A stretch of DNA of 64,000 bases from Dehalococcoidia bacterium (GTDB lineage: Bacteria; Chloroflexota; Dehalococcoidia; Lucifugimonadales; UBA3495): positions 3,658,858 through 3,722,857 of the forward strand of contig OZ220699.1 in the NCBI GenBank assembly GCA_965116565.1, given 5' to 3'. A program made the position numbers and the translations under genes. The notes under the pieces were generated by a model, which was not told the origin of the DNA, did not search any database, and was given only the letters and a program-made list of their open reading frames with translations. Positions 37,921 through 59,964 of the stretch are shown here, piece by piece. Numbering within the stretch: the first letter of the stretch is position 1; every line of letters starts with the position of its first letter.

Positions 37921-38221
37921 AGAGAGGCAGGACCCAAGCATCGACGGCCAACCCCGTCAGTAAAAATCGCAACCGGCCCAGGTGGCAACCGCCGCTCAAA
38001 GACCTCACTCCTCACCGGCATGAGCCCCACTGGTGTCCCCGGGACTGTCCGAGCCCGCGCGCAGGTGTGCACCAAGCGCACTGAGTACACGGAAAAGTAG
38101 GTCAAATAGTTGCGTGCCCAACCCGGCCGTACGCTGACAACGATGCGCAGATCCTGCCTCTCGCCCAATCATCCCGAAACCCAATCGACGAAACCCGAAG
38201 GAGAAACCCCACCGAAACACC
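37921..38221 (-). repeat. 301-bp repeat unit, copy 1 (inverted relative to 59664-59964)
   Basis: A hand alignment of its reverse complement to 59664-59964 gives 297/301 identities. Confidence 0.95.
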
Positions 38222-38435
38222 AAACCCAACGAACCGAAAAACCCTCTCCCATCAAAGGAGAGGGTTGGGATGGGGGTGAAAACACCGCCAAACCAGCCCC
38301 TTCCCGATGACCCGTAAACCGCAAAACGAGGGTACGGGGTCCAAAGCTGCCCCGTGCCTGGTCCCGGATCTCTGGCAGATCCGCCAGCGGAGTTTTCATG
38401 ATTCTCCCCTTCAGGCCAAAAAGGGGATTTCTCGG

Positions 38436-38464
38436 TTGCGCGCGCCCCGGCCCTGCGCCATAAT
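38436..38464 (+). promoter_or_regulatory. sigma70-like promoter TTGCGC-17-CATAAT
   Basis: Exact 17-nt spacer, 58 nt upstream of ATG 38522, which is preceded by GGGAGG. Confidence 0.35.
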
Positions 38465-38521
38465 ACGGCCACCAGGGACGCCGGGCTGGCCCGCTGTCTG
38501 CCCACACGGGAGGTACATCTC

Positions 38522-39475
38522 ATGCCACAAGCAGGGATCCCATCGGAACAGGATGTGTTGGGCTGGTTCGACAGCCTGTCCAACTGGGGCCGCTGGGGCG
38601 ACGATGACGAGCTTGGCACCCCCAACCTGATTACGCCCGAGAAAACCAGGGCCGCCCTGGCCACCGTCGAGGAAGGCCATTGCGTGTCACTCTCCCGGGA
38701 CATCACATGGGATCCCGCCGTCGACGTGCCGGCCCCGCCCGTCCATTACATGATTGAGAGCGGCGAGGGCTGGGCCACCGGCGACAAGGTCTCCAACCGC
38801 CCTTCCGCCGTGGCCATGGACTACATCGGCATGATATTCCACGGCGTTTCCGTGACCCACGTCGATAGCCTCGCCCACTTTTTCTGGAACGGCAAAACCT
38901 ACAACGGCAAACCCGCCCACATGGTCTCCACCAGCCTCGGCGCGACCGTCTGCTCCGTGGAACAGGCCCACAAGGGATTCATCACCCGCGGCGTGCTGGT
39001 CGACGTCCCGTTCGTTCGCGGGATCGATTGGGTGGAACGTGGTGAAGGCGTCATGCCCGACGATATCCTCGCCGCCGAGGAACGGTGCGGGTTCCGCATC
39101 GAACCGGGCGACGTCCTCCTCGTGCGCACCGGCCAGTTGCACCGCCGCAACGTCGAGGGGCCCGTGCCGCGCGAGGCCGGGTCCACCGCCTGCCAGGCCG
39201 CCTGCCTGCCCCTCTTCAGGGAACGCGACATCGCGGTGCTCGGCTCCGACACCGGCAACGACGTCAGCCCTCCCCAGTATCCCGGACAGTTGACCAATCC
39301 CATTCATCAGGTTTCCATCACGGCTATGGGCCTGTGGATCCTCGACAACGCCAACCTCGAAGAGGTCGCCGAGGCATGCCGGGAACGGAACCGCTGGACC
39401 TTCATGGTCAGCATCAACCCCCTGCGCATGCAGAACACCACAGGCTCCCCCGTCAACCCGGTGGCGGTGTTTTAG
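38522..39475 (+). CDS. cyclase-family protein (kynurenine-formamidase-like)
   Basis: ..GTPNLITPEK.. and ..FHGVSVTHVDSLAHFFWNGK.. are typical of the putative cyclase family. Confidence 0.7.
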   Translation: MPQAGIPSEQDVLGWFDSLSNWGRWGDDDELGTPNLITPEKTRAALATVEEGHCVSLSRDITWDPAVDVPAPPVHYMIESGEGWATGDKVSNRPSAVAMDYIGMIFHGVSVTHVDSLAHFFWNGKTYNGKPAHMVSTSLGATVCSVEQAHKGFITRGVLVDVPFVRGIDWVERGEGVMPDDILAAEERCGFRIEPGDVLLVRTGQLHRRNVEGPVPREAGSTACQAACLPLFRERDIAVLGSDTGNDVSPPQYPGQLTNPIHQVSITAMGLWILDNANLEEVAEACRERNRWTFMVSINPLRMQNTTGSPVNPVAVF

Positions 39476-39599
39476 GTCATAGTCGCCCGTCCGCGCGCCG
39501 ATTTCCTGCGTAGTACGGGAATCCGGTAAGCGCTTTCGTTAGCGCGGGCCTTGACATCAACACGTTTAAGTTCAATCATTCGTAGCTGGAGGTGCTGGT

Positions 39600-39821
39600 A
39601 TGGCTGAATCCGCCGAATCCAACGTTTCCGCCGGATCCACTGTTTCCATGGAGGACTTCAGGGCCCTGGTGCGCATAGCGGGCCTGCCCCTGGACGACGC
39701 GGAACTCGAGGAACTTCTGCCGCTCTACCAGTTTCTCAGGCAGCGCGTTGAAATGCTCCACGAGGCTGATCTGCCCCTGGGCAGTCAGGCCATGACTTTC
39801 CCCGCCGACTGGGGCCGTTAG
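39600..39821 (+). CDS. GatC/AtzG-like small protein
   Basis: 73 aa. ..FRALVRIAGLPLDDAELEELLPLYQFLRQRVEMLHEADL.. follows the GatC pattern. It lies directly upstream of an amidase-signature enzyme. Confidence 0.55.
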   Translation: MAESAESNVSAGSTVSMEDFRALVRIAGLPLDDAELEELLPLYQFLRQRVEMLHEADLPLGSQAMTFPADWGR

Positions 39822-39852
39822 GGTCTCACCCCCTCCATTCGAGGAGATTTGC

Positions 39853-41256
39853 ATGGCCGTGCCCAGCGAGTTGCACTACTTGACGATAGGCGAAGCGGCG
39901 CCGCTGATCGCCTCCGGGGAACTTTCTCCGGTGGAACTCACGCGCGCGTACTTGGCCCGCATTGACTCTATCGATGGGCAACTCGATTCCTTCGTTACCC
40001 TCACGTCGGAGTTGGCTCTATCCCAGGCCCGGCAGGCCGAGTCCGAAATACGGGCCGGCCGGTACCGTGGACCCCTCCACGGCATCCCCATCGCCCTCAA
40101 GGACCTCTACGACACCGCCGGCATCAGGACCACCGCCATGTCGCGCGTGACTCCGGACCGGGTGCCCGACGAGGACGCCACCACCGTCGCCAAGCTTTAC
40201 GAGGCCGGCGCCGTGCTCCTCGGCAAGCTGGCGATGCACGAGTTCGCCCTCGGCGGACCCGATTTCACCAGCCTGTTCCCGCCGGCGCGAAACCCGTGGA
40301 ACACCGCCCACATGCCCGGAGGCAGTAGCAGCGGTTCCGGCGCGGCGGTGGCCGCCGGCCTCTGCATGGGAGCGCTGGGTTCCGACACCGGCGGCAGCAT
40401 CAGGGGCCCTGCTTCGATGTGCGGCATCGCCGGGATCAAGCCCACGTTTGGGCGGGTCAGCAACTTCGGCGTCGTACCCCTTTCCTGGTCCCAGGACCAC
40501 TGCGGCCCGATGACCTGGACCGTGGAGGACTGCGCCATCATGCTCCAGGCCATCGCCGGGCATGACCCCAGGGATCCCACCACGGCCGACGTCCCGGTGC
40601 CCGACTACCTGGCCGCGCTCCGCGACGGCGTGCGCGGACTCACCGTAGGGGTGCCCCGGGAGTATTTCTATGAGGAAGCTCCGGGTGTGGACGTCCAGGT
40701 GATCGAGGCCGCCGAGCGCGGTTTGGAAACCCTGTCCGAGCTCGGCGCCGAAATCCGGGACGTGGAAATCCCCCACATCAAGTACGCCCAGACCGCCAAC
40801 CAGGTCATCATGATGTCCGAGGCCTACTCGTTCCATGAGGCCAACCTCAAAACCCGCCGCCAGGATTACGGCAACCTGGTCCGCAACCGTTTCCTGTTGG
40901 GCGGGCTGCTCTCCGCGTCCGACTACAACCAGGCTATGCGTATGCGTCGCGTCATCAAGGACGAAATGGCCGAAGCCCTGCGCCAGGCCGACGTGCTGGT
41001 AACCCCCACCTACGCATCTCCTGCGCCGCAGATCGAAGGGTACGCCGGCGCCACCACTCTCACACAGCCCAGCTTCACCGGACCGTTCAACGTGTCCGGG
41101 CTGCCGGCGGTTTCAACCCCCAGCGGGTTGTCCGACGCCGGGTTGCCCGTGGGACTGCAGATAGTGGGCCGGCCGTTCGACGAAGCCACGGCGTTGCGCG
41201 TGGCCCACGCCTACGAACAGGCCACTCGTTTCATCGACCGGAGGCCGCCCCTGTAA
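39853..41256 (+). CDS. amidase-signature (GatA-like) amidase
   Basis: 467 aa with GGSSSGSGAAVAAG and GSDTGGSIRGPA. Confidence 0.9.
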   Translation: MAVPSELHYLTIGEAAPLIASGELSPVELTRAYLARIDSIDGQLDSFVTLTSELALSQARQAESEIRAGRYRGPLHGIPIALKDLYDTAGIRTTAMSRVTPDRVPDEDATTVAKLYEAGAVLLGKLAMHEFALGGPDFTSLFPPARNPWNTAHMPGGSSSGSGAAVAAGLCMGALGSDTGGSIRGPASMCGIAGIKPTFGRVSNFGVVPLSWSQDHCGPMTWTVEDCAIMLQAIAGHDPRDPTTADVPVPDYLAALRDGVRGLTVGVPREYFYEEAPGVDVQVIEAAERGLETLSELGAEIRDVEIPHIKYAQTANQVIMMSEAYSFHEANLKTRRQDYGNLVRNRFLLGGLLSASDYNQAMRMRRVIKDEMAEALRQADVLVTPTYASPAPQIEGYAGATTLTQPSFTGPFNVSGLPAVSTPSGLSDAGLPVGLQIVGRPFDEATALRVAHAYEQATRFIDRRPPL

Positions 41257-41308
41257 GGACCGCTTAGGATTTTTCACAAAATCCGTACCAATCGCCAAGG
41301 CATAGTCA

Positions 41309-41337
41309 TTGACATAGTGCCGGCGCTAAGGTATTAC
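41309..41337 (+). promoter_or_regulatory. sigma70-like promoter TTGACA-17-TATTAC
   Basis: Consensus -35 box with an exact 17-nt spacer, 50 nt upstream of ATG 41387. Confidence 0.5.
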
Positions 41338-41386
41338 TCACTGCGGGTTGCAATAGGGGCCCGCAAACTATCGGAGGATTCGTTTT

Positions 41387-41542
41387 ATGACCACGCAAGT
41401 CCAGATTTTCTGCGTCAAGTGTAAGGAGAAGACCGACTCGTCAGACGTCCAGGGCGTTACCATGAAAAACGGTCGGCCGGCCACTCAGGCCATCTGCACA
41501 GTCTGCGGAACCAAGAAATTCCGTATCGGCGCCATGCCCTAG
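41387..41542 (+). CDS. 51-aa zinc-ribbon protein (DUF5679-like), absent from ORF track
   Basis: MTTQVQIFCVKCKEKTDSSDVQGVTMKNGRPATQAICTVCGTKKFRIGAMP has two CxxC pairs and GGAGG 8 nt upstream. Confidence 0.65.
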   Translation: MTTQVQIFCVKCKEKTDSSDVQGVTMKNGRPATQAICTVCGTKKFRIGAMP

Positions 41543-41792
41543 CCGACGCGTGAGGGTTCTCGGCTCTGGTTGCGAGTTTCCTCGACGACTCGCACAGTGG
41601 CCGGGCGTGCTCACAGTGAGAGCCGGATAACAAGAACGACTGCCATACAAGAATATGGGTGCCGTCAAACATCGCCCATCAACATCGATTTTCGCATACT
41701 CTGCCAGGGCCCACCCCATTTTCTCATGACCTGCTGAGCGAAAACGCCCGAGTCGTGGCGGGGTAACCGACCCTCCCGCCAACGGAAAACCT

Positions 41793-41824
41793 GGAGCGCT
41801 CCCAAGGGAGCGCTCCACTCTTTT
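41793..41824. terminator. bidirectional terminator hairpin GGAGCGCTCCC-AA-GGGAGCGCTCC
   Basis: 11-bp perfect stem with a T-run on the plus side and TTTTCC on the minus side. It lies between convergent genes. Confidence 0.6.
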
Positions 41825-41852
41825 GCGTCAACGCCCAGGCGCCGTGCGACCT

Positions 41853-43262
41853 CTAACCCGCCAGCCACCTGAGCACTCGACCGGTAAATCCGCGCGTCAG
41901 CCCGTCCAGGTATGCGTCCCACGCCACCTGCTGATTGCCCGTGCCCAGCGACGGGTACGCCTGCATCGCCCTGGCGACGTCAGCCATTTTCAAACCATGC
42001 TGCCCCGCGATCGCCCATCCCTGCAGAGTCTCCGCCGAGTTGCGTCCCACCACGGTCGCGCCCAGCACCGTCCCGTTGTCCCGGTACACCACCTTGATGA
42101 ACCCCTCGGTGCTGCCATCCGTTACCGCCCGGTCAACGGAACCCATCGGCAATGTGGACACCCGGACTTTCCCGGCGAAACGCTCCCGCGCCTGCGCCTC
42201 GGTGTAACCCACATGGGCCACCTCGGGGTCGGTGAAAGTGGCCCACGGAGGATGGGCCGGCCGCGCCCTGGAACGGCCCGGCAGCAGCATGTTGCGCACC
42301 GCCATCGCGCCCTGGTAACCGGCGTAATGGGTGAACTGGAACCCGCCCGCGCAATCCCCGGCCGCATAGATGTTCCTGGCGCCGGTCCGCAAGTGGTTGT
42401 CCACAGTTATGCCAGCCCTTGAGTACAGCACTCCGGCGGCCTCCAGGCCCATCCCGTCAACATTCGCCCGCCGACCCACCGCCACCAGCAACCCGTCCCC
42501 GACTATTTCGTCACCGGCCGCGGTCACCGAGATAGCGCCCGACTCGCCCGAACGTACTGATTCCACCGGCGCTCCCAGCCGCAGATCGACACCGTCCCGC
42601 CGCAGCGCATCCGCGACCATTTGGGCCGCCTCCGCCTCGTCGTTGGGCAGGATCCGGTCCAGCGCCTCCAGCAGCGTCACCTGCGATCCCAGGCGTTGGC
42701 ACGCCTGCGCCAGTTCACACCCTATCGGCCCGCCACCGACGACAATCAAGCGTTCCGGCAAGGATTCCTGCTGCCAGAAATTCTCGTAGGTCAGGCAAGG
42801 GGTTTCGGCAAGGCCTGGAATCGGCGGTACGAATGGAGAAGCCCCGGTACAGATGAGGAAGTGTTTGGCAGTAATTCGCCCCCCATCGACGGCTACGGTA
42901 TGGGGATCCTCAAACCGCGCTTTACCTTCGATCACGTCGATGCCCTCGGCCCGCAGCGCGTCCGGCGACTCGGCGGCGTATATCTGCTCAACAACGCTGC
43001 GTATGCGGTCCATCACCGCTGCGAAATCCACCTCCGGCTCCCCGGCGTGGATACCCAACTCTCCGCCGGTACGGATGGTGTGGGCCACTCTGGCGGCGTG
43101 CAGCAGCGCCTTGCTCGGCACACACCCCGTCCAGGTGCAGTCGCCGCCCACCCGGTTGGCCTCAATGAGCGCAACACGCCTCTCCAACCGGGCCGCAAAG
43201 CGCGCCGCCGTCAGTCCAGCCGACCCGGCCCCGATGATCGCAAGATCGTAGTCCGTAGCCAT
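41853..43262 (-). CDS. class I pyridine nucleotide-disulfide oxidoreductase (dihydrolipoyl dehydrogenase/MerA-core-like)
   Basis: DLAIIGAGSAGL plus the redox-active GGDCTWTGCVPSK motif, 469 aa. Confidence 0.8.
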   Translation of the reverse strand: MATDYDLAIIGAGSAGLTAARFAARLERRVALIEANRVGGDCTWTGCVPSKALLHAARVAHTIRTGGELGIHAGEPEVDFAAVMDRIRSVVEQIYAAESPDALRAEGIDVIEGKARFEDPHTVAVDGGRITAKHFLICTGASPFVPPIPGLAETPCLTYENFWQQESLPERLIVVGGGPIGCELAQACQRLGSQVTLLEALDRILPNDEAEAAQMVADALRRDGVDLRLGAPVESVRSGESGAISVTAAGDEIVGDGLLVAVGRRANVDGMGLEAAGVLYSRAGITVDNHLRTGARNIYAAGDCAGGFQFTHYAGYQGAMAVRNMLLPGRSRARPAHPPWATFTDPEVAHVGYTEAQARERFAGKVRVSTLPMGSVDRAVTDGSTEGFIKVVYRDNGTVLGATVVGRNSAETLQGWAIAGQHGLKMADVARAMQAYPSLGTGNQQVAWDAYLDGLTRGFTGRVLRWLAG

Positions 43263-43467
43263 GATTCGGGGAAATCTCCCAAAAAGGGCCGTGTATGTGT
43301 CAAGCCCGCGGAAAAAAGATGCGTCTCCCGCGTGCAGGAGTTCGGGAGTCGTTGCAGAAAGCTATCGTTGCGATCGTCTGGGAATCGGGTTATGAGTGCC
43401 GCGCAGGTGCATACGTCGCGGAAATGGATTTTGCGGCATTGCCCGCTTGAACCCATTATAAGGGAAT

Positions 43468-44970
43468 CTACCGCGGCCCCTTGATCTGGTCGGGCAGCCA
43501 CAGCGCCAGATCAGGAAAAACGATGATCAGCCCGATCACAATGGCCATGCACGCCATGAAGGGCAGCACCCCGATGTACACGTCGTTGATGGTGCCCGTT
43601 TCCGCTCTTTGGCCGGTCTCTGCGACCTCCTGCCTCGCCACGTCGTGACGGGCTCCCTGCAGGACGTACAGGCTGAGACCCTGCGGCGGGCTGATCTGCG
43701 CCGCCTCCAGCAGGATGATCATGATGATCCCGAACCACAGCAGGTCCACCTCCGCCGCCCGCAGCACCGGCGATATGATGGGCAGCGTCGTCAGCATCAT
43801 GGAATAGGCCTCCATGAATGTTCCCAGCAACAGGTAGAACACCACCAGGAACAGCACCAACTGCACCGTGCTCAGGTTGAAGCTGGCGACCCACTCCGCC
43901 ATGGTGACCGATATCCGCAGGTACGCAAACGCGAACTGCAGCGTGAACGCCGCCATCAGGATGAACAGGATCATCGCCGAGGAACGCGCCGCCGACACAC
44001 ACGCCTCCATCGTCATTTTCACGATGAACCGGCAGTAGTTGCGGAAGTGCTCGCCGTTGAACCGGTATTCCTCCCGCCAGCTTTCCAGCGTCCTCCGCAC
44101 CTCGGGCGATATCTGCGCCGCGATCCCCAGGCTCAGCACAAATTCTGCGATGTTTCCTGCGAACAATCTCACGAAGTTGTAGATGATCGCCAGCGCCAGC
44201 GCTCCGGTCACTCCAAATCCGGCCGCCTCTGATGGAGTCGCCCACCCGAAATAAATGCTGCCCAGCACGATGAAAATCAGCGCCAGCACCGGCACCATCA
44301 GCACGGTGAACAGCAGCCGCTCGACCCAACCCTCCCAACTCCAGAACCGCGCCCCGGTTTGCCTCGGCGCAACGGCCGGCCAGATCACCGACGCAACCCC
44401 GATCATCAGCATGAACACGCCGGCCAGCAGTATCCCCGGGATGAAACCCGCGAGGAACAGTCTGCCAATCGACTCGCCAACCGTCAGGCCATACAGCACC
44501 AGCAGGATGCTGGGCGGAATCAGGATGCCCAGCGTGCCGCCGGCCGCCAGCGAGCCCACCACCAATCGTTCCTGGTAGCCCTGTGCCCGGAATGACGGCA
44601 GCGCGACCCTGCTGACGGTGGCCGCCGTGGCGATGCTGGACCCCGCGCACGCCGCGAACACCGCGCAACTGGCGATGTTGGTGTGCATCAGCCCGCCCGG
44701 TATGAAGTCCACCCAGCGGGACAGCGCGCGATACATCAGGTTGGCAAACCCGCCCCGCAGTACGATTTCACCCATCAATATAAAGAGCGGGATCGCCACC
44801 AGGTTTACGTTGGTGTTGGTTTCCCACGCCCGGTTCCCCATGATGTTCCACACCGGGTTGTCGGAGAAAACTTGCAGCAGGATCAGCGCCAGCGATCCCA
44901 ACGCGCCGGCCACGTACAGGCCCGCGAAGAACATGGCACCCATGAGGATGAATGCGATGGAGATCAGCAT
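43468..44970 (-). CDS. TRAP transporter large permease (DctM family)
   Basis: 500-aa polytopic ORF with ..AIPLFILMGEI.. and GGLMHTNIASCAVFAACAGSS. No DctQ or DctP is adjacent. Confidence 0.75.
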   Translation of the reverse strand: MLISIAFILMGAMFFAGLYVAGALGSLALILLQVFSDNPVWNIMGNRAWETNTNVNLVAIPLFILMGEIVLRGGFANLMYRALSRWVDFIPGGLMHTNIASCAVFAACAGSSIATAATVSRVALPSFRAQGYQERLVVGSLAAGGTLGILIPPSILLVLYGLTVGESIGRLFLAGFIPGILLAGVFMLMIGVASVIWPAVAPRQTGARFWSWEGWVERLLFTVLMVPVLALIFIVLGSIYFGWATPSEAAGFGVTGALALAIIYNFVRLFAGNIAEFVLSLGIAAQISPEVRRTLESWREEYRFNGEHFRNYCRFIVKMTMEACVSAARSSAMILFILMAAFTLQFAFAYLRISVTMAEWVASFNLSTVQLVLFLVVFYLLLGTFMEAYSMMLTTLPIISPVLRAAEVDLLWFGIIMIILLEAAQISPPQGLSLYVLQGARHDVARQEVAETGQRAETGTINDVYIGVLPFMACMAIVIGLIIVFPDLALWLPDQIKGPR

Positions 44971-45010
44971 TGGTCAACTGAGGTTTGATGGGACCTGGAT
45001 TGGTCGGCAC

Positions 45011-45062
45011 ACAAAAACCCCGTCGCCTGGTCCACGCAAGCCTCCGGCTAGCGGCGACGGGG
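45011..45062 (-). terminator. possible terminator (CCCCGTCGCC..GGCGACGGGG stem, T-run on minus strand)
   Basis: 10-bp stem with a 25-nt loop, followed on the minus strand by TTTTTGT, downstream of gene 45163-45522. Confidence 0.3.
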
Positions 45063-45162
45063 TAAGTAGCCCGCGCATAATAGCCGACACGGTGACCGGT
45101 GTCCATAAACTCCCCACCTCACGCGCACGCGTACCCGTACCCACATTGGGGAATGGTCATGG

Positions 45163-45522
45163 CTATGGGGCTGGGCAAGGCAGATCCCAGCGGAGCAAGG
45201 CGCGGTAGCGGTCGCGGCTGGCCCAGGGGAGGAGTTTGCAGACGATGGATTCGGGGTCGGGAATATCGCCCTGACGTCGAGCGACGTCCAGGTAGCGGCG
45301 GAGTCGGATAAAGGCGCTCAGGAGAAAGCCGGCGTTGGCGATGCGCTGGATGACTTCGGCCGGCTCAGGAGGTTCGGCGGGAGTCCAATCGTCGGCGACG
45401 GCCTCGGCGATGCGGCGGAGTTTGATGATGGCGAGCTCTGGGGCGAATCTGCGTTTGAGGGCCTTGATCATACGGCGGAGTTGCGAGAGGGTCATGGGGT
45501 TGCCTCCCGAGGGAGCAAGCAT
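45163..45522 (-). CDS. hypothetical protein
   Basis: 119-aa ORF (or 110 aa from MTLSQL at 45495). Helical and R-rich, with no family recognised. Confidence 0.35.
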   Translation of the reverse strand: MLAPSGGNPMTLSQLRRMIKALKRRFAPELAIIKLRRIAEAVADDWTPAEPPEPAEVIQRIANAGFLLSAFIRLRRYLDVARRQGDIPDPESIVCKLLPWASRDRYRALLRWDLPCPAP

Positions 45523-46047
45523 CGGGATCGGGGGATGGTGGCGCCCCGCATCAAGTACGGGGTGACCCCGTGTCGGGCAAGGGAAGGCTGTTATTTTGCG
45601 GAAATCCCGCTCATTTCCGTTCGGTTGAGCAGGGCGGGTGGCGGGGGGCGCGATGGGGGCGGCGAGGGCGGTTTTGAGCGGGATTTCGGTGGTTTTGGCG
45701 GGCTGGCGGGAGGATTTGGGGGAAGATGTTCAGGATGGCTCGCGACGGTCAGAATTGTGATTACCGAGATCAGAGGATTTTCAGGATTGAGTTTGTCCGG
45801 TGATTTGGATTGGGGCGATTGGACAGTTAGATGGCAAGGAAGAGCGGAGAGCAGGAGCAAGGTGGAGATGTCAGGAGATAGACGGTTGGGGGCACGCTGG
45901 CAGCGGTCGGACAGATCCGGATTCCGGCGGCTCCCATCGCAAGGTGGGCACGGGTGAGACTCTCCACAGGGCGACCGATTACATTCTTTGACATGAGTCC
46001 CGGCATGCATGACACCTGGATTACGACCGTCGGACCGACAATTTTCA

Positions 46048-50815: not shown

Positions 50816-50821
50816 CAATTG

Positions 50822-51623: not shown

Positions 51624-52447
51624 AGGTGCAAATACGAGACCATGAGGCGCTGGAGTCATTAACCGCTGCCGGCTTGCGGGAATATCTGGAAGCAAATGGC
51701 TGGTCTTACGCTGGACACTGGGGAGAGCGCCCTATCGTCATATACAGCAAGGAGCAAGATGCTCGGAAGTGGGAGATACTGGTCCCACTCCGAGATACCG
51801 CCAGTGACTACGCCGAGATGCTGGGTTTGGCAGTTACCACTCTGGCCGAGGCTGAAGATAGGTCTCAGTTGGACGTGTTTGGCGACCTGACCAACTGGAG
51901 CATCGACCGGGCACCACCGACCAATCACGGAGAGACAAAGAAAGCACCCAACATCTGGCGCGTTGGCGCTGAGAAAGGCAAGTACACCGAACATTTCGTG
52001 GCCGGCGGATATGCGGCGGCTGGCTGGATACGAGGCGTCGACCTGACCGAGGTCAAGGAGAAAGAAGAATTTAAACGGCTTTTTCGGAAAGAGAATTCCT
52101 CCGCCACGCCCGCTCAGGTTAATGGTAACGCAGCGCAAATCCGTCGCTTTATAGTGGAAATCAAGCCCGGAGATTACATCATCACGCCAACAACGACGTA
52201 CAACTTGCTACGATATGGCCGCGTCAAATCCGGCGTTTACTACAAGGCCGAGCCCGACGACGGCTGTCCGTTCCCGCACCGTCGCCAGGTCGATTGGGCC
52301 AAGCGACCTCTGAATAGCCAGGAATTCCCCCAAAAACTCTACAATGCGATGAAATTTCCTCAATTGACAGTGTACTCGGTTCGTCATCGGGAACAGTTCC
52401 TAGCGGCGGTCGTCGAGTCACTGTGGCTAAACGCTCGTTGGCTGTGA
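51620..52447 (+). CDS. two-domain hypothetical protein (unknown N-domain + module resembling N-termini of McrB/Mrr-type restriction proteins)
   Basis: The ATGA overlap with the upstream stop suggests translational coupling. The C-terminal half (IWRVGAEKGKYTEHFVAGGYAAAGW..IRRFIVEIKPGDYIITP..YGRVKSGVYY..PHRRQVDW) resembles an unnamed module I recall from restriction ATPases and nucleases. Confidence 0.5.
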   Translation: MKVQIRDHEALESLTAAGLREYLEANGWSYAGHWGERPIVIYSKEQDARKWEILVPLRDTASDYAEMLGLAVTTLAEAEDRSQLDVFGDLTNWSIDRAPPTNHGETKKAPNIWRVGAEKGKYTEHFVAGGYAAAGWIRGVDLTEVKEKEEFKRLFRKENSSATPAQVNGNAAQIRRFIVEIKPGDYIITPTTTYNLLRYGRVKSGVYYKAEPDDGCPFPHRRQVDWAKRPLNSQEFPQKLYNAMKFPQLTVYSVRHREQFLAAVVESLWLNARWL

Positions 52448-52497
52448 ACCAGTTGACCAGCTCATCAAACACTCGTTTTGAACAGGAGCCACCACCA

Positions 52498-53520
52498 ATG
52501 AGAGTTGTTTATTCACTGAGATCGCGGGAGTTTGACGGCGTGGCCGCCGAGGCGGCGTGGGCAGAATCGGCGGGTTATGACGGCGTTTCAACCAATGAAA
52601 CGGCGCACGATTCGTTCCTGCCCCTGGCGGTGGCCGCCACGTCCACCAGCCGGGTCACGCTGGAAACCCACGTTGCCATCGCCTTCCCGCGATCGCCCAT
52701 GGTGGTGGCATACACCGCACGCGACCTGCAGGACGGCAGCGGCGGACGGTTCCGGCTGGGGCTTGGCACCCAGGTCAAGGGGCACATTGAGCGGCGGTTT
52801 TCCACCCGGTGGACCGGCTCGGCGGGGTCGAGGCTGCGCGAGTACGTGCAGTCGCTGCGCGCGATCTGGAACTGCTGGGAAACTGGCAGCAACCTGGAAT
52901 ACCAGGGCGACTTCTACCAGTTCTCGTTGATGACACCGTTCTTCAGCCCCGGCCCCAGCGAGTACAACCCGCCCGAGGTGTACACCGCAGCGGTGAACGG
53001 GTACAACTGCCTGGTGGCCGGAGAGGTCAGCGACGGCCTGATGCTGCACAGCCTGACCTCACCCGAGTACATCCGGCAGGTGGTTCAGCCCAACGTGGCC
53101 GAGGGCGCGCGGCGGGCCGGACGCAACCCGGAGGACGTGAACATCGTGGGCGGCGGGTTCATCGTGACCGGGCCGAACCGGGAGGCCATCCGGCAGCAGG
53201 CAGAGGAAACCCGCCGCCGCATATCCTTCTACTCCTCCACTCGGACGTACTTCCCGGTGCTGGAGTGCCACGGCTTCGAGGATATCGGCACGGAACTGCA
53301 CCGGCTGTCCCGCGAAGGCAAGTGGGACGAGATGCCCGGCCTGGTGCCGGACGAGATGCTGAACGCCTTTGCCACCATCGGCGAATATGACGAGATCGCC
53401 GGCAAGTTCCGGGAAAAGTACGGCGACCTGGTGGACGAAATGCACTTCTCGTTTGATGCGCCCACGGACGCCGAACAGGCCCAACTGCAACGCATCGTGC
53501 GGGACCTCCAGGAACTGTAG
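52498..53520 (+). CDS. LLM-class F420-dependent oxidoreductase
   Basis: ..AESAGYDGVSTNETAHDSFLPLA.., ..VAIAFPRSPMVVAYTARDL.. and RFRLGLGTQV. Start at ATG 52498 after AGGAG. Confidence 0.8.
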   Translation: MRVVYSLRSREFDGVAAEAAWAESAGYDGVSTNETAHDSFLPLAVAATSTSRVTLETHVAIAFPRSPMVVAYTARDLQDGSGGRFRLGLGTQVKGHIERRFSTRWTGSAGSRLREYVQSLRAIWNCWETGSNLEYQGDFYQFSLMTPFFSPGPSEYNPPEVYTAAVNGYNCLVAGEVSDGLMLHSLTSPEYIRQVVQPNVAEGARRAGRNPEDVNIVGGGFIVTGPNREAIRQQAEETRRRISFYSSTRTYFPVLECHGFEDIGTELHRLSREGKWDEMPGLVPDEMLNAFATIGEYDEIAGKFREKYGDLVDEMHFSFDAPTDAEQAQLQRIVRDLQEL

Positions 53521-53529
53521 CAACGAAAG

Positions 53530-54318
53530 TTGACTGAGGAATATCCATCTGAAATTGAACTTGACCCTCAGCGGTTCAAGCTGGGCAGCGAATCGGAACT
53601 CACCTACCGGCTGAAGTGGGAAGCCTGGGAGTGGCTGTACTGCGTGGCCCGCTGCCGTTGCATCGGGCTGGAGGTGCGGCTGCAAGGCCCGTGGGGGTCG
53701 GTGATTGACGTGGTGGGCGTCGGCCCGGCCAACACGATCTACGTGATGGAGGTCAAGGTGTCCCGGTCGGATTTCGCGCGGGACAACCACACCGACGCTG
53801 ACCTTGCCCGCCTGCGCAAGCGGGCCGATTCATTGGCGCGACGAATCGAGCTGGCGGATGCGCCATCATACCGGACGTCTGCTGGCGACCTGGACCGGTT
53901 GCTGCAAGAACAGGAACGACTGCGCGAACGACTGGCTACCGTATCCACCAAGTTCCACGACCCGCGGTTTTTGAGTATCGCCGACTATCACTACATCATG
54001 GCGCCCCGGGGCGTCGTGCTGGCCGAAATGCTGGCCGGCGGATGGGGTCTGCTGGAGCAGGGTCCGCGAGAGGTCGTGGCAGCGCCCACCAAGCACATAC
54101 GGAAGAACGGTGGCATCATGTCCAACGTGCTGCGGTCGGTGGCGCGGGCCAACTCAACGGCTATGATGCGGGCGCACGGGGTACGGTTCGGGAGCGACGG
54201 GGCTGTTTTTCCGCGCCCCGGTGACGAGCGCTTTCCCGCGTACGTGCGGGGCGAACAGGCGACAAACAGGACCGCAACGGCAATCACGGAGGATAAGCAT
54301 GGCTGCCATCAAGATTGA
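53530..54318 (+). CDS. MmcB-like PD-(D/E)xK nuclease-fold protein
   Basis: ..SVIDVVGVGPANTIYVMEVKVSRSDFARD.. and ..ADYHYIMAP..GWGLL.. resemble the MmcB/DUF1052 layout with an inserted coiled-coil. TTG start. Confidence 0.4.
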   Translation: MTEEYPSEIELDPQRFKLGSESELTYRLKWEAWEWLYCVARCRCIGLEVRLQGPWGSVIDVVGVGPANTIYVMEVKVSRSDFARDNHTDADLARLRKRADSLARRIELADAPSYRTSAGDLDRLLQEQERLRERLATVSTKFHDPRFLSIADYHYIMAPRGVVLAEMLAGGWGLLEQGPREVVAAPTKHIRKNGGIMSNVLRSVARANSTAMMRAHGVRFGSDGAVFPRPGDERFPAYVRGEQATNRTATAITEDKHGCHQD

Positions 54319-54904
54319 TCCTGGGCAAACGGCGCTCCTGATCCAGGACATGCAGAACGAGTTGATCAAGGGCGGCGCGATGCCGGTGCAGCCGTACTCG
54401 GGCGAGGAGATCATTGCCAACAGCGTTCGATTGCTGGAAAAGGCCCGCGCCGTCGGCATGCCGGTGATCTACGTGGTGGTGAACCGCCGGCCGGATCGTC
54501 GGGACGCGCCGCGGCCGCCCTTCGGGGCGCCGGCCAGCGCGTCGGACGCAGGACCACGCCTCACGGCCGGTACGCACGATGCGGAGGTGGTATCCGAGCT
54601 TGCGCCGGATCCCGAGGACCCGGTTGTTATCAAGCACACGACCAGCCCATTCAACACCACTGACATCGAGGTGTACCTGCGCCGGTTCGGCATCACCACG
54701 CTGGTCCTGACGGGCTATTCCACCACGGGCGTAGTGGAGGGATCGCTGCGCGACGCCAAGGACAAGGACTACGACTGCATCGTGGTGCGGGACTGCTGCG
54801 CGGGCGGCACGTCCACCGAGCACGACGTGTGCATGGACATCATCTTCCCGCGCATGGCGTGGGTGGCGACGGCGGACGAGGTTATTGGGGCGATTGAGGA
54901 GTAG
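54299..54904 (+). CDS. isochorismatase-family cysteine hydrolase
   Basis: ..TALLIQDMQNE.. and ..LVLTGYSTTGVVEGSLRDA... Start at ATG 54299 after GGAGG. Confidence 0.75.
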   Translation: MAAIKIDPGQTALLIQDMQNELIKGGAMPVQPYSGEEIIANSVRLLEKARAVGMPVIYVVVNRRPDRRDAPRPPFGAPASASDAGPRLTAGTHDAEVVSELAPDPEDPVVIKHTTSPFNTTDIEVYLRRFGITTLVLTGYSTTGVVEGSLRDAKDKDYDCIVVRDCCAGGTSTEHDVCMDIIFPRMAWVATADEVIGAIEE

Positions 54905-54928
54905 GCGGTCGGTACGAACCGGATTCGA

Positions 54929-55780
54929 TCATTCAGGACGTAAATCTCGGTCGACCAGTTTGTGCCAGTGCACCATCCCACGGTCGATGGTGTCCTGGAT
55001 TTCGTTCACGTTCTGGATGCTGGCGATGGCCGGATGGGCCGGATGGCCGGTGAAGCGGGTCAGGAGGCCGGCATTCCGGATGGCGCGACGGGTATCGCGC
55101 TCATCGGCGGTATACGATATCTCCATAGCGATGTACTGTGTCTCACCGTTTGTGTCGGTGGCTTCGATGACCAGATCGGCGCTGCGGAAACTAAGAATAT
55201 CGCCATCGGCAATTCCGGAAGTGTCGGCAGACGTTGTCATGCTGACGAGGTCGCCGTATGACAGCGTGCGCACCATCCGGAAACCCATCACGATGGCCAC
55301 TCCATCTGCCTGCCTGATGGTTTCGTCGCGGGCGTGGAACCCTTTGACGGTACCCAAGTCATCTCGAATCGTGCGGACATCGTTTTTGAGTTGCCCCACA
55401 TCCTCCTTCAGCTGTGCCACATCTTCACGAATCTCTCGGACATCCGATTCCAGGCGATCCGTACGCCCGCTGGCTTCTTCGTTGAACTGGCGCTGATCCT
55501 GATTGAACCGGCGTTGTTCCTCGTTGATCTGGCGCTGATCCTCGCTGAACCGACGTTGTTCTTCGTTGAACTGGCGCTGATCCTCATTGAACCGGCGTTG
55601 TTCTTCGTTGAACTGTTCGGTATCGGCCATGAACTGCTCAGTGGTCGCCGCGAAGCGATCGAAGCGCGCGGGCAAGTTCATCAGTTCCTCGGTGAGGATC
55701 TCGCGCCGAACTTCCGCTTTCCACTCCGGCCGCTCACGCAGCACGCGGAGTATGTCATCGCTGGTATGGATGATTACCAT
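54929..55780 (-). CDS. coiled-coil repeat protein with nuclease-like C-terminal domain
   Basis: Seven 7-aa repeats (EEQRRFN/EDQRQFN). The C-terminal ..ADLVIEATD..YIAMEISYT.. loosely resembles a PD-(D/E)xK core. Confidence 0.5.
   Translation of the reverse strand: MVIIHTSDDILRVLRERPEWKAEVRREILTEELMNLPARFDRFAATTEQFMADTEQFNEEQRRFNEDQRQFNEEQRRFSEDQRQINEEQRRFNQDQRQFNEEASGRTDRLESDVREIREDVAQLKEDVGQLKNDVRTIRDDLGTVKGFHARDETIRQADGVAIVMGFRMVRTLSYGDLVSMTTSADTSGIADGDILSFRSADLVIEATDTNGETQYIAMEISYTADERDTRRAIRNAGLLTRFTGHPAHPAIASIQNVNEIQDTIDRGMVHWHKLVDRDLRPE
55478..55624. repeat. 21-nt tandem repeat x7 (alternating A/B units) inside CDS
   Basis: Units start at 55478, 55499, 55520, 55541, 55562, 55583 and 55604, for example TTCGTTGAACTGGCGCTGATC and CTGATTGAACCGGCGTTGTTC. 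Confidence 0.85.
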
Positions 55781-55821
55781 GTTGTCCCTACCGCACCATT
55801 ATACGCCAACCGCCCGCCGGA

Positions 55822-56634
55822 CTAGCGGTTCAGCAGCCACCATTCGTCGGAGCCGAGGTTGAACTCGATGCGGCGGAAGCCCTCAGCGTATGGGACTCCG
55901 CAGCGTTCGCCCTGGAGCCGTGAGCCCTCGGTCATGCGGTCCAACCGCTGGGAGCGGGTGCGGGCGCTGATCTGGGACTCATGCCGGCTGAGCGCCTCCG
56001 CCTTCATGAGTATGTGCTTCTCGGTTATGGAGATGAAGGTATCGGGTCGCTCGGAGCCCCAGAGCAGGGCCTCGCGCACCTGGTGGGGTTCCAGGCCCTC
56101 GTCGGTAATCTGCTCGGGGAAGTCCAGCCAGCTCCAGGCGTAGGAGAATGCGGCGTCGAGGGCGGCCTGGCCGCTGTGCCGGTGGTCGCGGTGGGTGTGG
56201 GAGGTGACGCGGTAGGGGTCGATGCCGAAGACCACCTCGGGTTTATGCTTGCGGATCTGGCGCACGACCTCCCCGCGGTACTCGTGGGTATCCTCAAGCT
56301 CGCCGTCGCCGTAGCGCAGGAACACCACCTCGGCGACGCCCAGCACGTTGGATGCGTTTTGCTGTTCGACCTCGCGGGTGGCGGCCAGAGACTCGGGGGT
56401 GAAGGACCGGTCGCCGGTGCCCTTGTTGCCGTTGGTGCACATGAGGATGACCACTTTTGTGCCGGACTCGGCGATCCACTTGGCCATGGTCGCGCCGCAA
56501 CCGCCCTCAGCGTCGTCAGGGTGGGGCGTGACCACCAGGGCGCAGCGCGGAGCCTGATCCATCACGCGGGGTTCGGGAGCGTATTCCTGGTTGGGGTAGC
56601 CCCATCCGTCGATACCGTGGGGTCGGCTGGTCAT
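55822..56634 (-). CDS. PIG-L/LmbE-family deacetylase
   Basis: LVVTPHPDDAEGG and ..HRDHRH.. motifs. Confidence 0.8.
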   Translation of the reverse strand: MTSRPHGIDGWGYPNQEYAPEPRVMDQAPRCALVVTPHPDDAEGGCGATMAKWIAESGTKVVILMCTNGNKGTGDRSFTPESLAATREVEQQNASNVLGVAEVVFLRYGDGELEDTHEYRGEVVRQIRKHKPEVVFGIDPYRVTSHTHRDHRHSGQAALDAAFSYAWSWLDFPEQITDEGLEPHQVREALLWGSERPDTFISITEKHILMKAEALSRHESQISARTRSQRLDRMTEGSRLQGERCGVPYAEGFRRIEFNLGSDEWWLLNR

Positions 56635-56665
56635 GTTGGTTCTCCGTCGTACGTTGCAATGGGTA

Positions 56666-56687
56666 GGGGCGAATGATTATTCGCCCC
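56666..56687. repeat. REP hairpin GGGGCGAATGATTATTCGCCCC
   Basis: Identical 22-mer at 58398-58419, with a variant at 3715-3740. Confidence 0.8.
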
Positions 56688-56698
56688 CGTTGGATGCT

Positions 56699-56725
56699 GG
56701 ATTCCCGCTTTCGCGCGGGATGACG
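56699..56725 (+). repeat. REP-like hairpin GGATTCCCGCTTTCGCGCGGGATGACG
   Basis: Family with 63766-63792 and 12967-12994 (inverted). Confidence 0.6.
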
Positions 56726-56762
56726 ATCCTGCCACAAGCTCAGGATGATCGGCGACGTGGAG

Positions 56763-58181
56763 CTATCCGCCCATGTGGAATACGACCATCTTGAGTTCGG
56801 TCATTTCCTCGATGGCGTAGGCGGGACCCTCCTTGCCCATGCCGCTGTCCTTGAGCCCACCGTAGGGCATGACGTCGGCGCGCCACTGGGGCGATGAGTT
56901 AATGTGCAGGTTGCCGGAGTGGACTTCCTGCGCGAACTTCATGGCCCAGTCCACGTTCTGGGTAAAGATGCCGGCGGAGAGGCCGAACCGGGTGTCGTTG
57001 GCCTTGGCGATGGCGTCGTCAATGTCGTCGAAGGCGCTGACGGCGACGGCGGGCCCGAAGAGTTCCTCACGGGAGATGAGCATGTCTGGGCTGGCGTCGG
57101 CGACGACGGTTGCGGTGTGCAGGGTGCCTTCACGTCCGCCGCCGGCGATGACGCGGGCGCCCTGGCCCACGGCCTCGGCGATCCAGCTTTCAACGCGCTC
57201 GGCGTCGGTCTGGCGGATCATGGGGCCCATCTTGACGTCCTCGTCGAAGGGGTTGCCGACGCTGAACTCCTGGGTGGGCTTGACCAAGGCATCGAGCAGG
57301 TCGGCGTAGATGGTGCGGGCGGCGAAGACGCGCTGGGTGGAGATGCAGACCTGGCCGGCGTTGGCAAAACCGCTGGCCACGGTGGCGGCGGCGACCTTCT
57401 CGATGTCGGCGTCGGACATGATGATGAGCGGGCTGTTGGAGCCCAGTTCCATGGTGACCTTCTTGATGCCGGCGTTGCGGCAGATCTGGTCGCCCACTTC
57501 CATGCTGCCGGTGAAGGTGATCTTGCGGACATCGGGCGAGCCGGTGATGGCGTCGCCGATCTCGGCGCCGGAGCCGGTGATGGTCTGGATGGCTTCCTCG
57601 GGCAGGCCGGCTTCAAGCAGGATCTCGGTGAGCTTGAGGGCGGACAACGGGGTGTCGCCGGCGGGCTTGAGGATCACGGCGTTGCCAGCGGCGAGGGCGG
57701 GCCCCACCTTGTGGCAGACGAGGTTCAGCGGGAAGTTGAAGGGCGCGATGGCAGCCACGATGCCCACGGGCACGCGGATGGTGAACCCGAACTGGCTGAC
57801 GACGCCGGGAGCCGCATCCAGCGGCACGGTCTCGCCGTGCAGGCGCTTGGCCTCTTCGGCGGAGAGGGTGATGGTCTGGATGGCGCGCTGCACTTCGCCC
57901 CGGCCCTCGGCGATGACCTTACCCTCCTCGCGGGTGATGGTCTCGGCGAGGTCGTCGGCCCGTTCGTCCATGAGGTCGGCGGCGCGCTTGAGGATGGTGT
58001 AGCGGCGGTGGGCCGGCAGCTTGGCCATCACGGCGGCGCCGCGGACGGCGCTGGCGATGGCGGCCTCAACGTCGGCGGCGGTGCCGCGGGGCACGGTGTC
58101 GAACGCGCTCTGGTCGAAGGGATTGATGACGGGCATCTTGGCATCACGGTCAACCCACTGGCCGCAAATGTACATCTTCAT
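56763..58181 (-). CDS. NAD(P)-dependent aldehyde dehydrogenase
   Basis: 472 aa from ATG 58181, after AAGGAGA. It carries ..VTMELGSNSP.. and ..FANAGQVCIST.. (catalytic Glu and Cys motifs). Confidence 0.88.
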   Translation of the reverse strand: MKMYICGQWVDRDAKMPVINPFDQSAFDTVPRGTAADVEAAIASAVRGAAVMAKLPAHRRYTILKRAADLMDERADDLAETITREEGKVIAEGRGEVQRAIQTITLSAEEAKRLHGETVPLDAAPGVVSQFGFTIRVPVGIVAAIAPFNFPLNLVCHKVGPALAAGNAVILKPAGDTPLSALKLTEILLEAGLPEEAIQTITGSGAEIGDAITGSPDVRKITFTGSMEVGDQICRNAGIKKVTMELGSNSPLIIMSDADIEKVAAATVASGFANAGQVCISTQRVFAARTIYADLLDALVKPTQEFSVGNPFDEDVKMGPMIRQTDAERVESWIAEAVGQGARVIAGGGREGTLHTATVVADASPDMLISREELFGPAVAVSAFDDIDDAIAKANDTRFGLSAGIFTQNVDWAMKFAQEVHSGNLHINSSPQWRADVMPYGGLKDSGMGKEGPAYAIEEMTELKMVVFHMGG

Positions 58182-58397
58182 CGTGGGGGTCTCCTTGAGT
58201 GGATTCCGGAACGGACCGGAGGGTACATGACGGCGAAAAGGCGTCATGCGGCGAAGATTGTACTACGGGAAACGAGTTGCGACCAAATGGGAGACCGGTC
58301 GGCCCGGCTGCGTCGGTGTCAACGGGCATCTCGCATCGATGCGCACGGCGCATCGGATGCGCAGATTCATGCACGGACCGGGTTGTCAATTGAAAGC

Positions 58398-58419
58398 GGG
58401 GCGAATGATTATTCGCCCC
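58398..58419. repeat. REP hairpin GGGGCGAATGATTATTCGCCCC
   Basis: Identical to 56666-56687. Confidence 0.8.
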
Positions 58420-58476
58420 GACGAAAGTATCCCGGCAACGCGGCGTGCGACGATGGGGCAGCGTGGCCGCACGGGG

Positions 58477-59304
58477 TCATTTGGCGAGGATGCAGTAGTG
58501 GTACAAGCCGGCCAGGGGCGCCAAGGCCTCGGCGAATTTTGGTGCGTGGAGAGCGCCGATTTCTTCCATGCCGCCCGACTGGATAAGTTGGAGCGGAGTA
58601 TTGCGCTCGAATGCCGTGGGGTCGTCAAAGCCGGTGGTGAAGGGCGTGAACTGTCTGTAGAAATAGTCGAAAGCGGCGGTAACGCTGCCGACCCCGCTGG
58701 ATCCATGAATCACGCTCGTCGACATGTAGTCGAAGGCGATGGTGAAGGCGGGCAGGTGGGTTGCCAGTTGACCCAGGAATTCGAAGATCAGGTCCTGAGG
58801 CAAGTACATGGTGTTGCCTTCCCAGATGAACAGGGAGGGTGAATCCGGGTCGAAGCCGGCTTCCAGCAATTTCTCGGGCAGGTTGACGTCCAGGTAGTCG
58901 CAGGGGACGGCGGGCCAGAGTTGGAGTCCGTGGCGTTCCAGAGTCTCGCGTTTGTACCGGATGACTGCCGGTTGGTCAACATCGAAGAAGGTCACGTCGT
59001 CGGTTCGGAAGATGGCGGGACGGGTATCGAAGCCGGAGCCCACGGATACGATCTGTTGCGTGCCCTTCGCAATGGATGATTTCACCAGTTCCCGAAAGAA
59101 CAGCAGGCGGCAACGGATCAGGTCATCGAATTCGGGGCAGACTTCGGCAAATCGCTGGGCGGCAGGCCTGATCTCATCGGGGACGAACCACTGGGCGAAG
59201 GGGTCGTCAAACAGGGAGTCAGGCCGATTGCGCTCGGCGTCGCGGAACCAGGCGATGAAGAAGGCGGTCTTGCCCACGTCGTTGATATCGATGGTGGTGG
59301 TCAT
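58477..59304 (-). CDS. class I SAM-dependent methyltransferase (leucine carboxyl/O-methyltransferase-like)
   Basis: ..TAFFIAWFRDAERNRPDSLFDDPFA.. and ..QIVSVGSGFDTR.. fit the LCM/TIGR00027-type family as remembered. Confidence 0.65.
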   Translation of the reverse strand: MTTTIDINDVGKTAFFIAWFRDAERNRPDSLFDDPFAQWFVPDEIRPAAQRFAEVCPEFDDLIRCRLLFFRELVKSSIAKGTQQIVSVGSGFDTRPAIFRTDDVTFFDVDQPAVIRYKRETLERHGLQLWPAVPCDYLDVNLPEKLLEAGFDPDSPSLFIWEGNTMYLPQDLIFEFLGQLATHLPAFTIAFDYMSTSVIHGSSGVGSVTAAFDYFYRQFTPFTTGFDDPTAFERNTPLQLIQSGGMEEIGALHAPKFAEALAPLAGLYHYCILAK

Positions 59305-59663
59305 GGTTATACCTCATTGGGATGTAGATGTATGGGACATGGAGTGGTATGACGCCATCCGGACAGATATCAGCCGGCTTCAAGGTTATGTTTAAATTAT
59401 AGCAATGAACGTCGTTCCGGAGGACATGGGTTGATCCTCCGGCGACGGTTGGGGATGGACTCATCATTGGACAGCCACCCGCATATGCGGACGTTCCGCA
59501 GGATGAGCGGTTGGGGTGATGGCGACGGACCGTTTTTGCGTCCACTCCGCAAGGTGTCGGTTGGTCGATGCGCGGTGGTGTTTGGGTTGGCTTGCTCCCT
59601 GGGGGTTTTGGCGATTGGTTTTTTGGATGATGGTTCGACAGGCTCACCATGAGCGGGGTGGTG

Positions 59664-59964
59664 GGTGTTTCGGTGGGGTTTCTCCTTCGGGTTTCGTCGA
59701 TTGGGTTTCGGGATAATTGGGCGAGAGGCAGGATCTGCGCATCGTTGTCAGCGTACGGCCGGGTTGGGCACGCAACTATTTGACCTACTTTTCCGTGTAC
59801 TCAGTGCGCTTGGTGCACACCTGCGCGCGGGCTCGGACAGTCCCGGGGACACCAGTGGGGCGAATGCCGGTGAGGAGTCAGGTCTTTGAGCGGCGGTTGC
59901 CACCTGGGCCGGTTGCGATTTTTACTGACGGGGTTGGCCGTCGATGCTTGGGTCCTGCCTCTCT
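59664..59964 (+). repeat. 301-bp repeat unit, copy 2
   Basis: 297/301 identical to the reverse complement of 37921-38221. It has a GT-rich 59-nt leader plus a core closed by an 11-bp stem (59723-59733 pairs with 59953-59963). Confidence 0.95.

Follow-up and report, generated by a model that had tools for sequence, protein, structure and literature searches.

Two near-identical 301-bp inverted repeats lie in a 64,000-nucleotide stretch of contig OZ220699.1 (positions 3,658,858 to 3,722,857 of the forward strand) from assembly GCA_965116565.1 of a Dehalococcoidia bacterium; this whole stretch is called the window here. The two arms, copy 1 and copy 2, are probably paralogous genes, each encoding a structured, promoter-driven non-coding RNA that measures some 300 nt or more. 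Either copy would form a transcription unit of its own, in which a sigma-70-type promoter and a leader of about 45 nt (a length inferred from the position of the promoter) with a 10-bp palindrome precede a 242-nt core. The ends of the core would be paired in two helices (P1, 11 bp, and P2), and these would enclose a conserved 5′ hairpin, an A-rich junction, a replaceable distal domain and a conserved 3′ hairpin. The unit would end in an unstructured, C/A-rich and G-poor tail of about 60 nt.

Two real copies in inverted orientation

Base-by-base comparison of positions 37921-38221 with the reverse complement of 59664-59964 gave 297 identities over 301 positions. The arms, their four mismatches and their spacing of 21,442 bp are thus as the original prediction had given them. 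The mismatches fall at 38006, 38022, 38023 and 38170 in copy 1, which correspond to 59879, 59863, 59862 and 59715 in copy 2, and they divide the tract into perfect runs of 85, 15, 146 and 51 bp, the longest being 146 bp. A repeat at 98.7% identity over 301 bp cannot arise by chance in 64 kb. A repeat search over 36-62 kb returned one inverted pair, 37913-38221 and 59664-59972 (309 nt, 98% complementary), and blastn of the unit against the whole window found no further full copy. Identity is lost sharply at both ends of the tract: the next 45 nt or so upstream are only about 65% alike, and the other flanks cannot be aligned. Each copy is intergenic, between divergently oriented genes.

Near-identical repeats are a classic source of misassembly, and the window comes from a metagenome-derived contig of 3.87 Mb. 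An alternative would be that one copy is an artefact, produced by a collapsed or mis-joined repeat or by a chimeric contig. Each copy has unique flanks, and four fixed differences separate the two. A 45.8-kb contig from another ENA analysis (ERZ25072196, ctg189267_2x_l), whose frameshifted genes mark it as error-prone, spans both copies with the same flanks and the same spacing. Copy 1 lies in one part of it (L008, record positions 34384-45799), which is collinear with window 36201-47204, and copy 2 in another (L009, 12314-32832), which is collinear with 48707-64000. This contig shares a 155-aa protein and a truncated LCM methyltransferase protein with the window, and the two marker genes are on one strand of the record, spaced as expected, in the order found at 36.2-64 kb of the window. 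L003 (ERZ24894577), a third contig with about 96% identity to window 49.4-64 kb, independently carries copy 2 and is collinear through it, with collinear flanks that exceed 10 kb on either side. Both repeat copies are real, and the probability left to an assembly artefact is negligible.

Three further sequences entered the comparison. L001 and L002 are relatives about 85% identical in DNA, whose cyclases are 97% and 95% identical to that of the window, and L004 is a relative with a 79% identical LCM protein. A diverged relative of the element itself was found in L012 (MKWU01019600.1, a JGI metagenome).

Promoters, fold and conservation of the proposed RNA

Both copies are preceded by promoter-like sequence. 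For copy 1, a regex scan identified TTGCCC-N18-TATCCT at 37852..37881 on the plus strand, and the leader follows at 37889..37920 (+) with TCTAGAT at 37889-37895 and a perfect 10-nt palindrome, AACGCGCGTT, at 37898-37907. The promoter and leader of copy 2 occupy 59965..60033 on the minus strand and comprise TTGACA (60033-60028), a 17-nt spacer, TATTCT (60010-60005), TCTAGAT (59997-59991) and the perfect 10-nt palindrome AGCACGTGCT (59988-59979). The copy 2 site, which is sigma-70-like, matches the consensus at 10 of 12 positions and is kept in L003 and L012. TCTAGAT stands at the same offset in both leaders, two bases before the palindrome, and the remaining leader is about 65% alike. The two palindromes differ symmetrically in both halves, which gives them the look of an operator or of a small hairpin whose changes are compensated. 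A loose promoter pattern, composed after its three sites had been viewed, matches three sites on the two strands of the window; these are copy 1, copy 2 and a third locus that is described below.

The near-identity of the two copies starts exactly at AGAGAGGCAGGA, which is predicted to pair with UCCUGCCUCUC 230 nt downstream and thereby to form P1. In copy 1 the core spans 37921..38162 (+), with P1 joining 37922-37932 to 38152-38162; the core of copy 2 spans 59723..59964 (−) and has orthologous copies in L003 and L009. Inside P1, the predicted consensus structure holds, in order, P2 (GCAUC/GAUGC), the 5′ hairpin P3 (GACGG-CCAACC-CCGUC), the A-rich strand AGUAAAAAUCGCA, a branched distal domain, the 3′ hairpin P4 and UGACAAC. 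P4, GCGUGC...GUACGC, was read from the comparison of the window with L012. The fold of the 245-nt core on the promoter-proximal strand reached a z-score of −3.53, a value equalled by none of 200 shuffles. For the 309-nt unit, the z-score was −2.7 on the promoter-proximal strand versus −1.0 on the opposite strand. The promoter-proximal strand is favoured by this better z-score and by several G-U pairs in the predicted structure. Of the four differences between the copies, two fall in a tetraloop, one at a helix end and one in the tail.

The tail (tail 1) extends over 59 nt at 38163..38221 (+) in copy 1, where it ends in AAGGAGAAACCCCACCGAAACACC, and at 59664..59722 (−) in copy 2, which is the same except at 59715. 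Tail 1 and its continuation contain 40% A, 42% C, 12% G and 6% U and are essentially unstructured, with a minimum free energy of about −5 kcal/mol. The last 24 nt of the tail, AAGGAGAAACCCNNNCGAAACACC, occur three times in the window versus an expectation of zero. Such a tail may serve as a Rho loading site, as an exposed single-stranded interaction region, or as both; L001, a related genome, has a Rho gene.

Searches for known functions gave no assignment. No match to Rfam 15 (4,227 families) was found in the whole window at gathering thresholds; at E≤10, over three regions, the weak chance matches all lay off the element, both in the window and in L012. Neither a tRNA nor a tmRNA was detected with ARAGORN. 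A protein-coding function on either strand was ruled out because 1-nt and 2-nt indels separate the strains; the antisense strand holds a 92-aa open reading frame (ORF) without a Pfam family.

An argument for selection on an RNA is the pattern of change between strains, measured between window copy 2 and its ortholog in L003. The surrounding sequence differs by 6.1% in the upstream intergenic region, 4.3% in promoter and leader, and 3.8% in the downstream intergenic region. Within the 242-nt core we counted nine substitutions and three gap columns, and these are far from evenly spread: a single 19-nt hairpin holds eight of the nine substitutions and one gap, and the A-rich junction has one substitution and a 2-nt insertion. 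The other 220 nt or so of the core show no change, where about 9-13 would be expected at the neighbouring rate. This pattern points to purifying selection on the RNA core, which would explain much of the near-identity of the two copies because most of the core has stayed unchanged across a strain divergence of about 4%.

The hypervariable hairpin, GGUGUGC-ACCAA-GCGCACU, lies at 38064..38082 in copy 1 (+) and at 59803-59821 in copy 2. In L003 its two strands, GGUGUGC/GCGCACU, are replaced by GGCGCGCC/GGCGUGCU, and pairing is kept through one double change (U-A to C-G) and two single compatible changes. A third version of the hairpin is found in L008. A small inversion as the origin of the variable hairpin was unsupported on inspection by eye.

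The diverged relative L012 retains the outer parts of the unit and departs from it in the middle. Its promoter agrees with the copy 2 promoter TTGACACACCCT...GGAACGTATATTCTAATA at 29 of 31 positions by our own count, and it carries the copy 1 palindrome AACGCGCGTT (L012 3123-3132), the tail motif and a hairpin, X, that is also found downstream of copy 2. The 5′ module (P1, P2, P3 and the A-rich strand) is 94% identical over 52 nt, the 3′ module CCGGCCGUACGCUGACAACGAUGC is identical at 25 of 25 positions, and P1 is lengthened to 14 bp. Between the modules, about 190 nt of L012 cannot be aligned with the 130-nt distal domain of the window. The L012 fold has a z-score of −6.35. In P4, a G-U pair of the window is an A-U pair in L012, and the P4 loop lacks CAA in both L012 and L008. 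The neighbours of L012 are unrelated to both window contexts and, read by eye, resemble a PIN/antitoxin pair and an M20-type peptidase. From these comparisons, a promoter appears to be followed, in members of the family, by a near-invariant base, a distal domain that can be swapped, and a C/A-rich tail.

A third window locus has the same overall layout. Locus 3 (20990..21467, −) has a promoter, a 10-bp stem closing around about 250 nt, and a C/A-rich tail with the same 24-nt motif, and folds with a z-score of −3.47; its downstream neighbour is a convergent SBP_bac_5 gene (18617-20647, +), whose 3′ end it runs into. What locus 3 has in common with the repeat is limited to the promoter block, the general architecture and the tail motif. 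The promoter block of copy 1 (GACACC..CCGTTGCCC), its TATCCT and its tail continuation resemble locus 3 and not copy 2; for the upstream block GACACC..GTTGCCC, the alignment score between copy 1 and locus 3 was reached by one of 300 shuffles. Homology between the core of locus 3 and the repeat core was not supported, the local alignment score being reached by 58 of 300 shuffles.

RNA gene, mobile element or leader

Several observations weigh against the RNA gene proposed here. Promoters, transcript ends and strand are all predicted, and the opposite strand of L012 folds almost equally well (z = −5.4). L012 is the one diverged homolog. The exact core 21-mer is absent from GTDB species representatives and from JGI metagenomes, and the exact tail 21-mer is absent from GTDB species representatives. 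The conserved base is nearly invariant and hence uninformative on pairing, and compensatory support is thin, at one double change and a few single compatible changes. Finally, P1 and P2 allow a second reading, as imperfect terminal inverted repeats of 22 bp (GAGAGGCAGGACCCAAGCATCG versus GAGAGGCAGGATCTGCGCATCG), and an imperfect 8-bp direct repeat (7 of 8 positions) flanks the core in each copy, CCCGATCA/CCCAATCA in copy 1 and CCCAATTC/CCCAATTA in copy 2, as would be seen with a miniature inverted-repeat transposable element (MITE).

These last two features belong to an explanation in which the unit is a non-autonomous mobile element, a MITE-like or selfish repeat with an outward or internal promoter, and the copies are recent insertions. 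Its size (242-280 bp) would fit, and so would its unrelated genomic contexts (the two window sites and L012), the absence of copy 1 upstream of the cyclase in two relatives, and the sharing of ends without interiors that is also seen among MITE families. The identity tract itself is harder to reconcile with insertion, in that it runs 59 nt beyond the right-hand terminal repeat and stops exactly at the left-hand one. The conserved promoter, common to copy 2 and L012, lies outside the supposed termini, and the leaders carry homologous features (TCTAGAT and the palindrome) at equal offsets, which insertion into unrelated targets would not be expected to produce. It would also be uncommon for a selfish repeat to be under strong purifying selection and to contain a compensated hairpin. 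As for the direct repeats on either side of the core, they sit in C/A-rich sequence where such matches arise easily, and the right-hand one lies inside the shared tail.

In the window and the other sequences covered, no transposase-linked copy was found either. The original prediction had allowed that the repeat might be the end of a known insertion sequence (IS); the unit has no similarity to the only transposase gene of the window, of the IS256/Mutator type (15851-17062, −; Pfam PF00872, E = 6e-135), and no transposase stands next to the copies in L003, L008, L009 and L012. Blastn of the unit against 72,556 plasmids and 50,697 phage records gave no match, nor did four patterns searched in IMG/VR. 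Correia, RUP and BOX elements and MITEs are like the unit in size, complementary ends, stable fold, intergenic position and shared ends with differing interiors. In contrast, the present unit has a promoter and leader outside its complementary ends, an asymmetric tract, very few copies, no known parent transposase and a compensated hairpin within a frozen core. Taken together, we regard a mobile element as an unlikely explanation, though one to be kept in view.

The position of the copies also raises the alternative of a cis-regulatory leader, namely a riboswitch or attenuator of the cyclase and LCM methyltransferase genes with Rho acting at the C-rich tail. Both copies are oriented toward their next gene, which lies 300-360 nt away. 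Rho-dependent riboswitch platforms combine a structured domain with a C-rich unstructured stretch, and the succession of core and tail resembles this arrangement. The downstream genes, however, are unrelated (the cyclase, the LCM methyltransferase and, in L012, the apparent M20-type peptidase). Between the element and the start codon, the cyclase and LCM genes each have an extended −10 promoter-like site of their own, and orthologs in relatives keep this promoter site without the element: in L001 and L002 the sequence that precedes the cyclase promoter is unrelated, and L004 has a different gene 324 nt upstream of the LCM gene. Locus 3, of the same architecture, is followed by the 3′ end of a gene that converges on it. 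Replacement of the whole distal domain would be incompatible with a ligand-binding aptamer, and no Rfam riboswitch matched at E≤10. The leader explanation is accordingly very improbable.

Returning to a stand-alone RNA gene, its product may act in trans, because the neighbours are inconsistent between the copies. The hypervariable hairpin and the swappable domain may serve as specificity modules on a fixed scaffold. Other established systems share parts of this picture, and the resemblance to known stand-alone structured RNAs is only a general one. A retron would share the paired ends, but no reverse transcriptase domain was found in the Pfam-scanned neighbours (the cyclase, amidase, LCM methyltransferase, another methyltransferase and hypothetical proteins). 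Like 6S and Ms1-type RNAs, which bind RNA polymerase, the element would be a promoter-driven, abundant-looking structured RNA; its closing helix is long, and its A-rich internal loop (GUAAAAAU) is conserved. Bacillus also has two 6S paralogs in one genome (6S-1 and 6S-2). Unlike the rod-like 6S RNA, the present element has a branched fold, a replaceable distal domain and a long 3′ tail, and neither the window element nor L012 matched the Rfam 6S model at E≤10. 6C RNA and RoxS/RsaE are stand-alone promoter-driven RNAs with exposed C-rich stretches able to pair with G-rich ribosome-binding sites. They measure 60-120 nt and carry C-rich loops, in contrast to the roughly 300 nt, the four-way-junction-like base, the long C/A-rich 3′ tail and the absence of an Rfam match here.

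More tentatively, the element could represent an undescribed modular RNA gene family in Chloroflexota, a possibility that we put forward as speculative. Its members would have a near-invariant four-way-junction base (P1-P4 and the A-rich junction) behind a conserved promoter, a distal domain swapped wholesale, a hairpin rewritten between strains, and a C/A-rich tail motif shared even with locus 3. Their tracts would recombine between promoter cassettes, possibly as semi-mobile units, and diversify the recognition module. A frozen scaffold with a strain-variable hairpin and a member-variable domain is the typical pattern of a scaffold with specificity modules. If confirmed, this would be a new RNA class from a poorly studied phylum and a test case for the copying of RNA genes between promoter cassettes. 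A degenerate tail-motif scan of JGI metagenomes gave 45 matches, about the number estimated by chance, among which L012 alone was related.

History of the pair and neighbouring features

The distribution of the copies bears on when they became alike. Copy 2 is present at its locus in all three assemblies that cover the site (the window, L003 and L009), and copy 1 is present in the window and L008 and absent upstream of the cyclase in L001 and L002. Both copies predate the split of the window and ERZ25072196 strains, and they differ by 1.3% versus a neighbouring strain divergence of 4-6%. At the tetraloop, both copy 1 orthologs (window and L008) have GA, and window copy 2 and L003 have TC; the remaining two differences between the copies are private to the window. 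From this we infer a single event, before the strains split, that would have copied exactly the RNA-coding tract (core and tail 1) between two promoter cassettes. Mechanistically, ectopic recombination or gene conversion would have carried the 301-bp tract between copy 2 and another promoter cassette, the one that precedes the cyclase gene, and purifying selection on the RNA would have left the copies nearly identical since. The copies have been held alike since the split either by purifying selection, which is seen, or by further conversion. The original prediction had attributed the near-identity to recent spread of an element or to ongoing gene conversion. Its direction was right, given that the sharp tract ends delimit one RNA unit and that copy 1 is absent in two relatives. 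Ongoing conversion is, however, not required, as both copies predate the split and the core is apparently frozen by selection. The prediction had also not recognised the unit for what it probably is, an RNA gene with its own promoter.

The tails have a history of their own. Downstream of copy 2, hairpin X (GCTCA-TGG-TGAGC) and a second tail, tail 2, which is 76% identical to tail 1, occupy 59576..59663 (−). A stretch of 86 nt that starts within tail 1, takes in X and ends within tail 2 is missing from L003, whose junction is a tail 1/tail 2 hybrid, which indicates a deletion between tandem tails. L012 has hairpin X and then a single tail. Comparison of window 59576-59722 with L003 9680-9740 and L009 9270-9420 placed tail 1, X and tail 2 in tandem in both the window and L009; tail 1 of L009, on the error-prone contig, looks like a tail 1/tail 2 hybrid. 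Judged from these arrangements, the tails appear to recombine. Downstream of copy 1, a hairpin at 38240..38266 (CCCTCTCC-ATCAAA-GGAGAGGG) has a terminator score on the minus strand alone, since a U-run is missing from the plus strand.

As a by-product, the inverted pair could allow RecA-dependent inversion of the 21.4-kb interval. Tracts of such length and identity can serve homologous recombination, and the 301-bp tract with its 98.7% identity and 146-bp perfect run is a plausible substrate. The interval consists largely of core genes, as had been predicted, among them rpmB (46601-46819, +), rpe (47396-48091, −) and argH (48088-49434, −). It also encodes the cyclase, an amidase, a DctM transporter, an aldehyde dehydrogenase and several ORFs without a Pfam match, and includes stretches that differ between strains. 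No inversion isomer was seen: the window, the ERZ25072196 contig (L008 across copy 1 and L009 across copy 2) and L003 all have one orientation, a sample that does not rule out isomers at low frequency. In L001 and L002, collinearity with the window is confined to the right of copy 1; on the left these two relatives also disagree with one another, and they are thus uninformative on inversion. With respect to invertons and shufflons, no recombinase domain was found in the scanned ORFs of the interval (four of which had no Pfam hit), the repeats are 301 bp long, and only one orientation was found.

On the side of genome structure, the arrangement is ordinary, being one of inverted paralogous genes with no inversion seen. 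The rrn operons and the tufA/tufB genes of Salmonella are inverted paralogous pairs that undergo concerted evolution and can invert the intervening chromosome. The present pair resembles them in its two inverted gene copies, identity confined to the gene, diverged flanks, a tract length sufficient for RecA and core genes in between. It differs in that its genes would encode an unclassified RNA about 300 nt long, the tract measures only 301 bp and the interval only 21 kb, and neither inversion nor conversion was seen.

Several further features of the window were recorded. Tandem motifs with a period of about 9 nt stand just upstream of promoter-like sites in this lineage, including four copies of ATCCTGTAC, repeats of CCGTCCAT, ATCCGTG and ATCCTGATA. 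They lie at 21510-21545, 37795-37830, 60075-60095 and about 45770-45810 (−) of the window, at 3517-3535 of L012 and at 480-520 of L002, and could be binding sites for a shared regulator. The GC skew changes sign near 45 kb, at the minimum of the cumulative skew (window positions 44000-47000, approximately), and genes on both sides converge there. A C-rich non-coding stretch of 0.5 kb lies at 45520-46010 (−), and both RNA copies are transcribed toward the skew point. Near copy 2, a gene swap distinguishes window 61323-62385 from L003 6778-7566, with a dCTP deaminase in the window and L009 versus a DUF1883/TIR-domain gene in L003. Lastly, a 21-nt tandem repeat, with at least six overlapping 57-nt copies, occurs at 55475-55636 inside the ORF 54929-55780 (−), whose weak matches are only to coiled-coil-like Pfam families.

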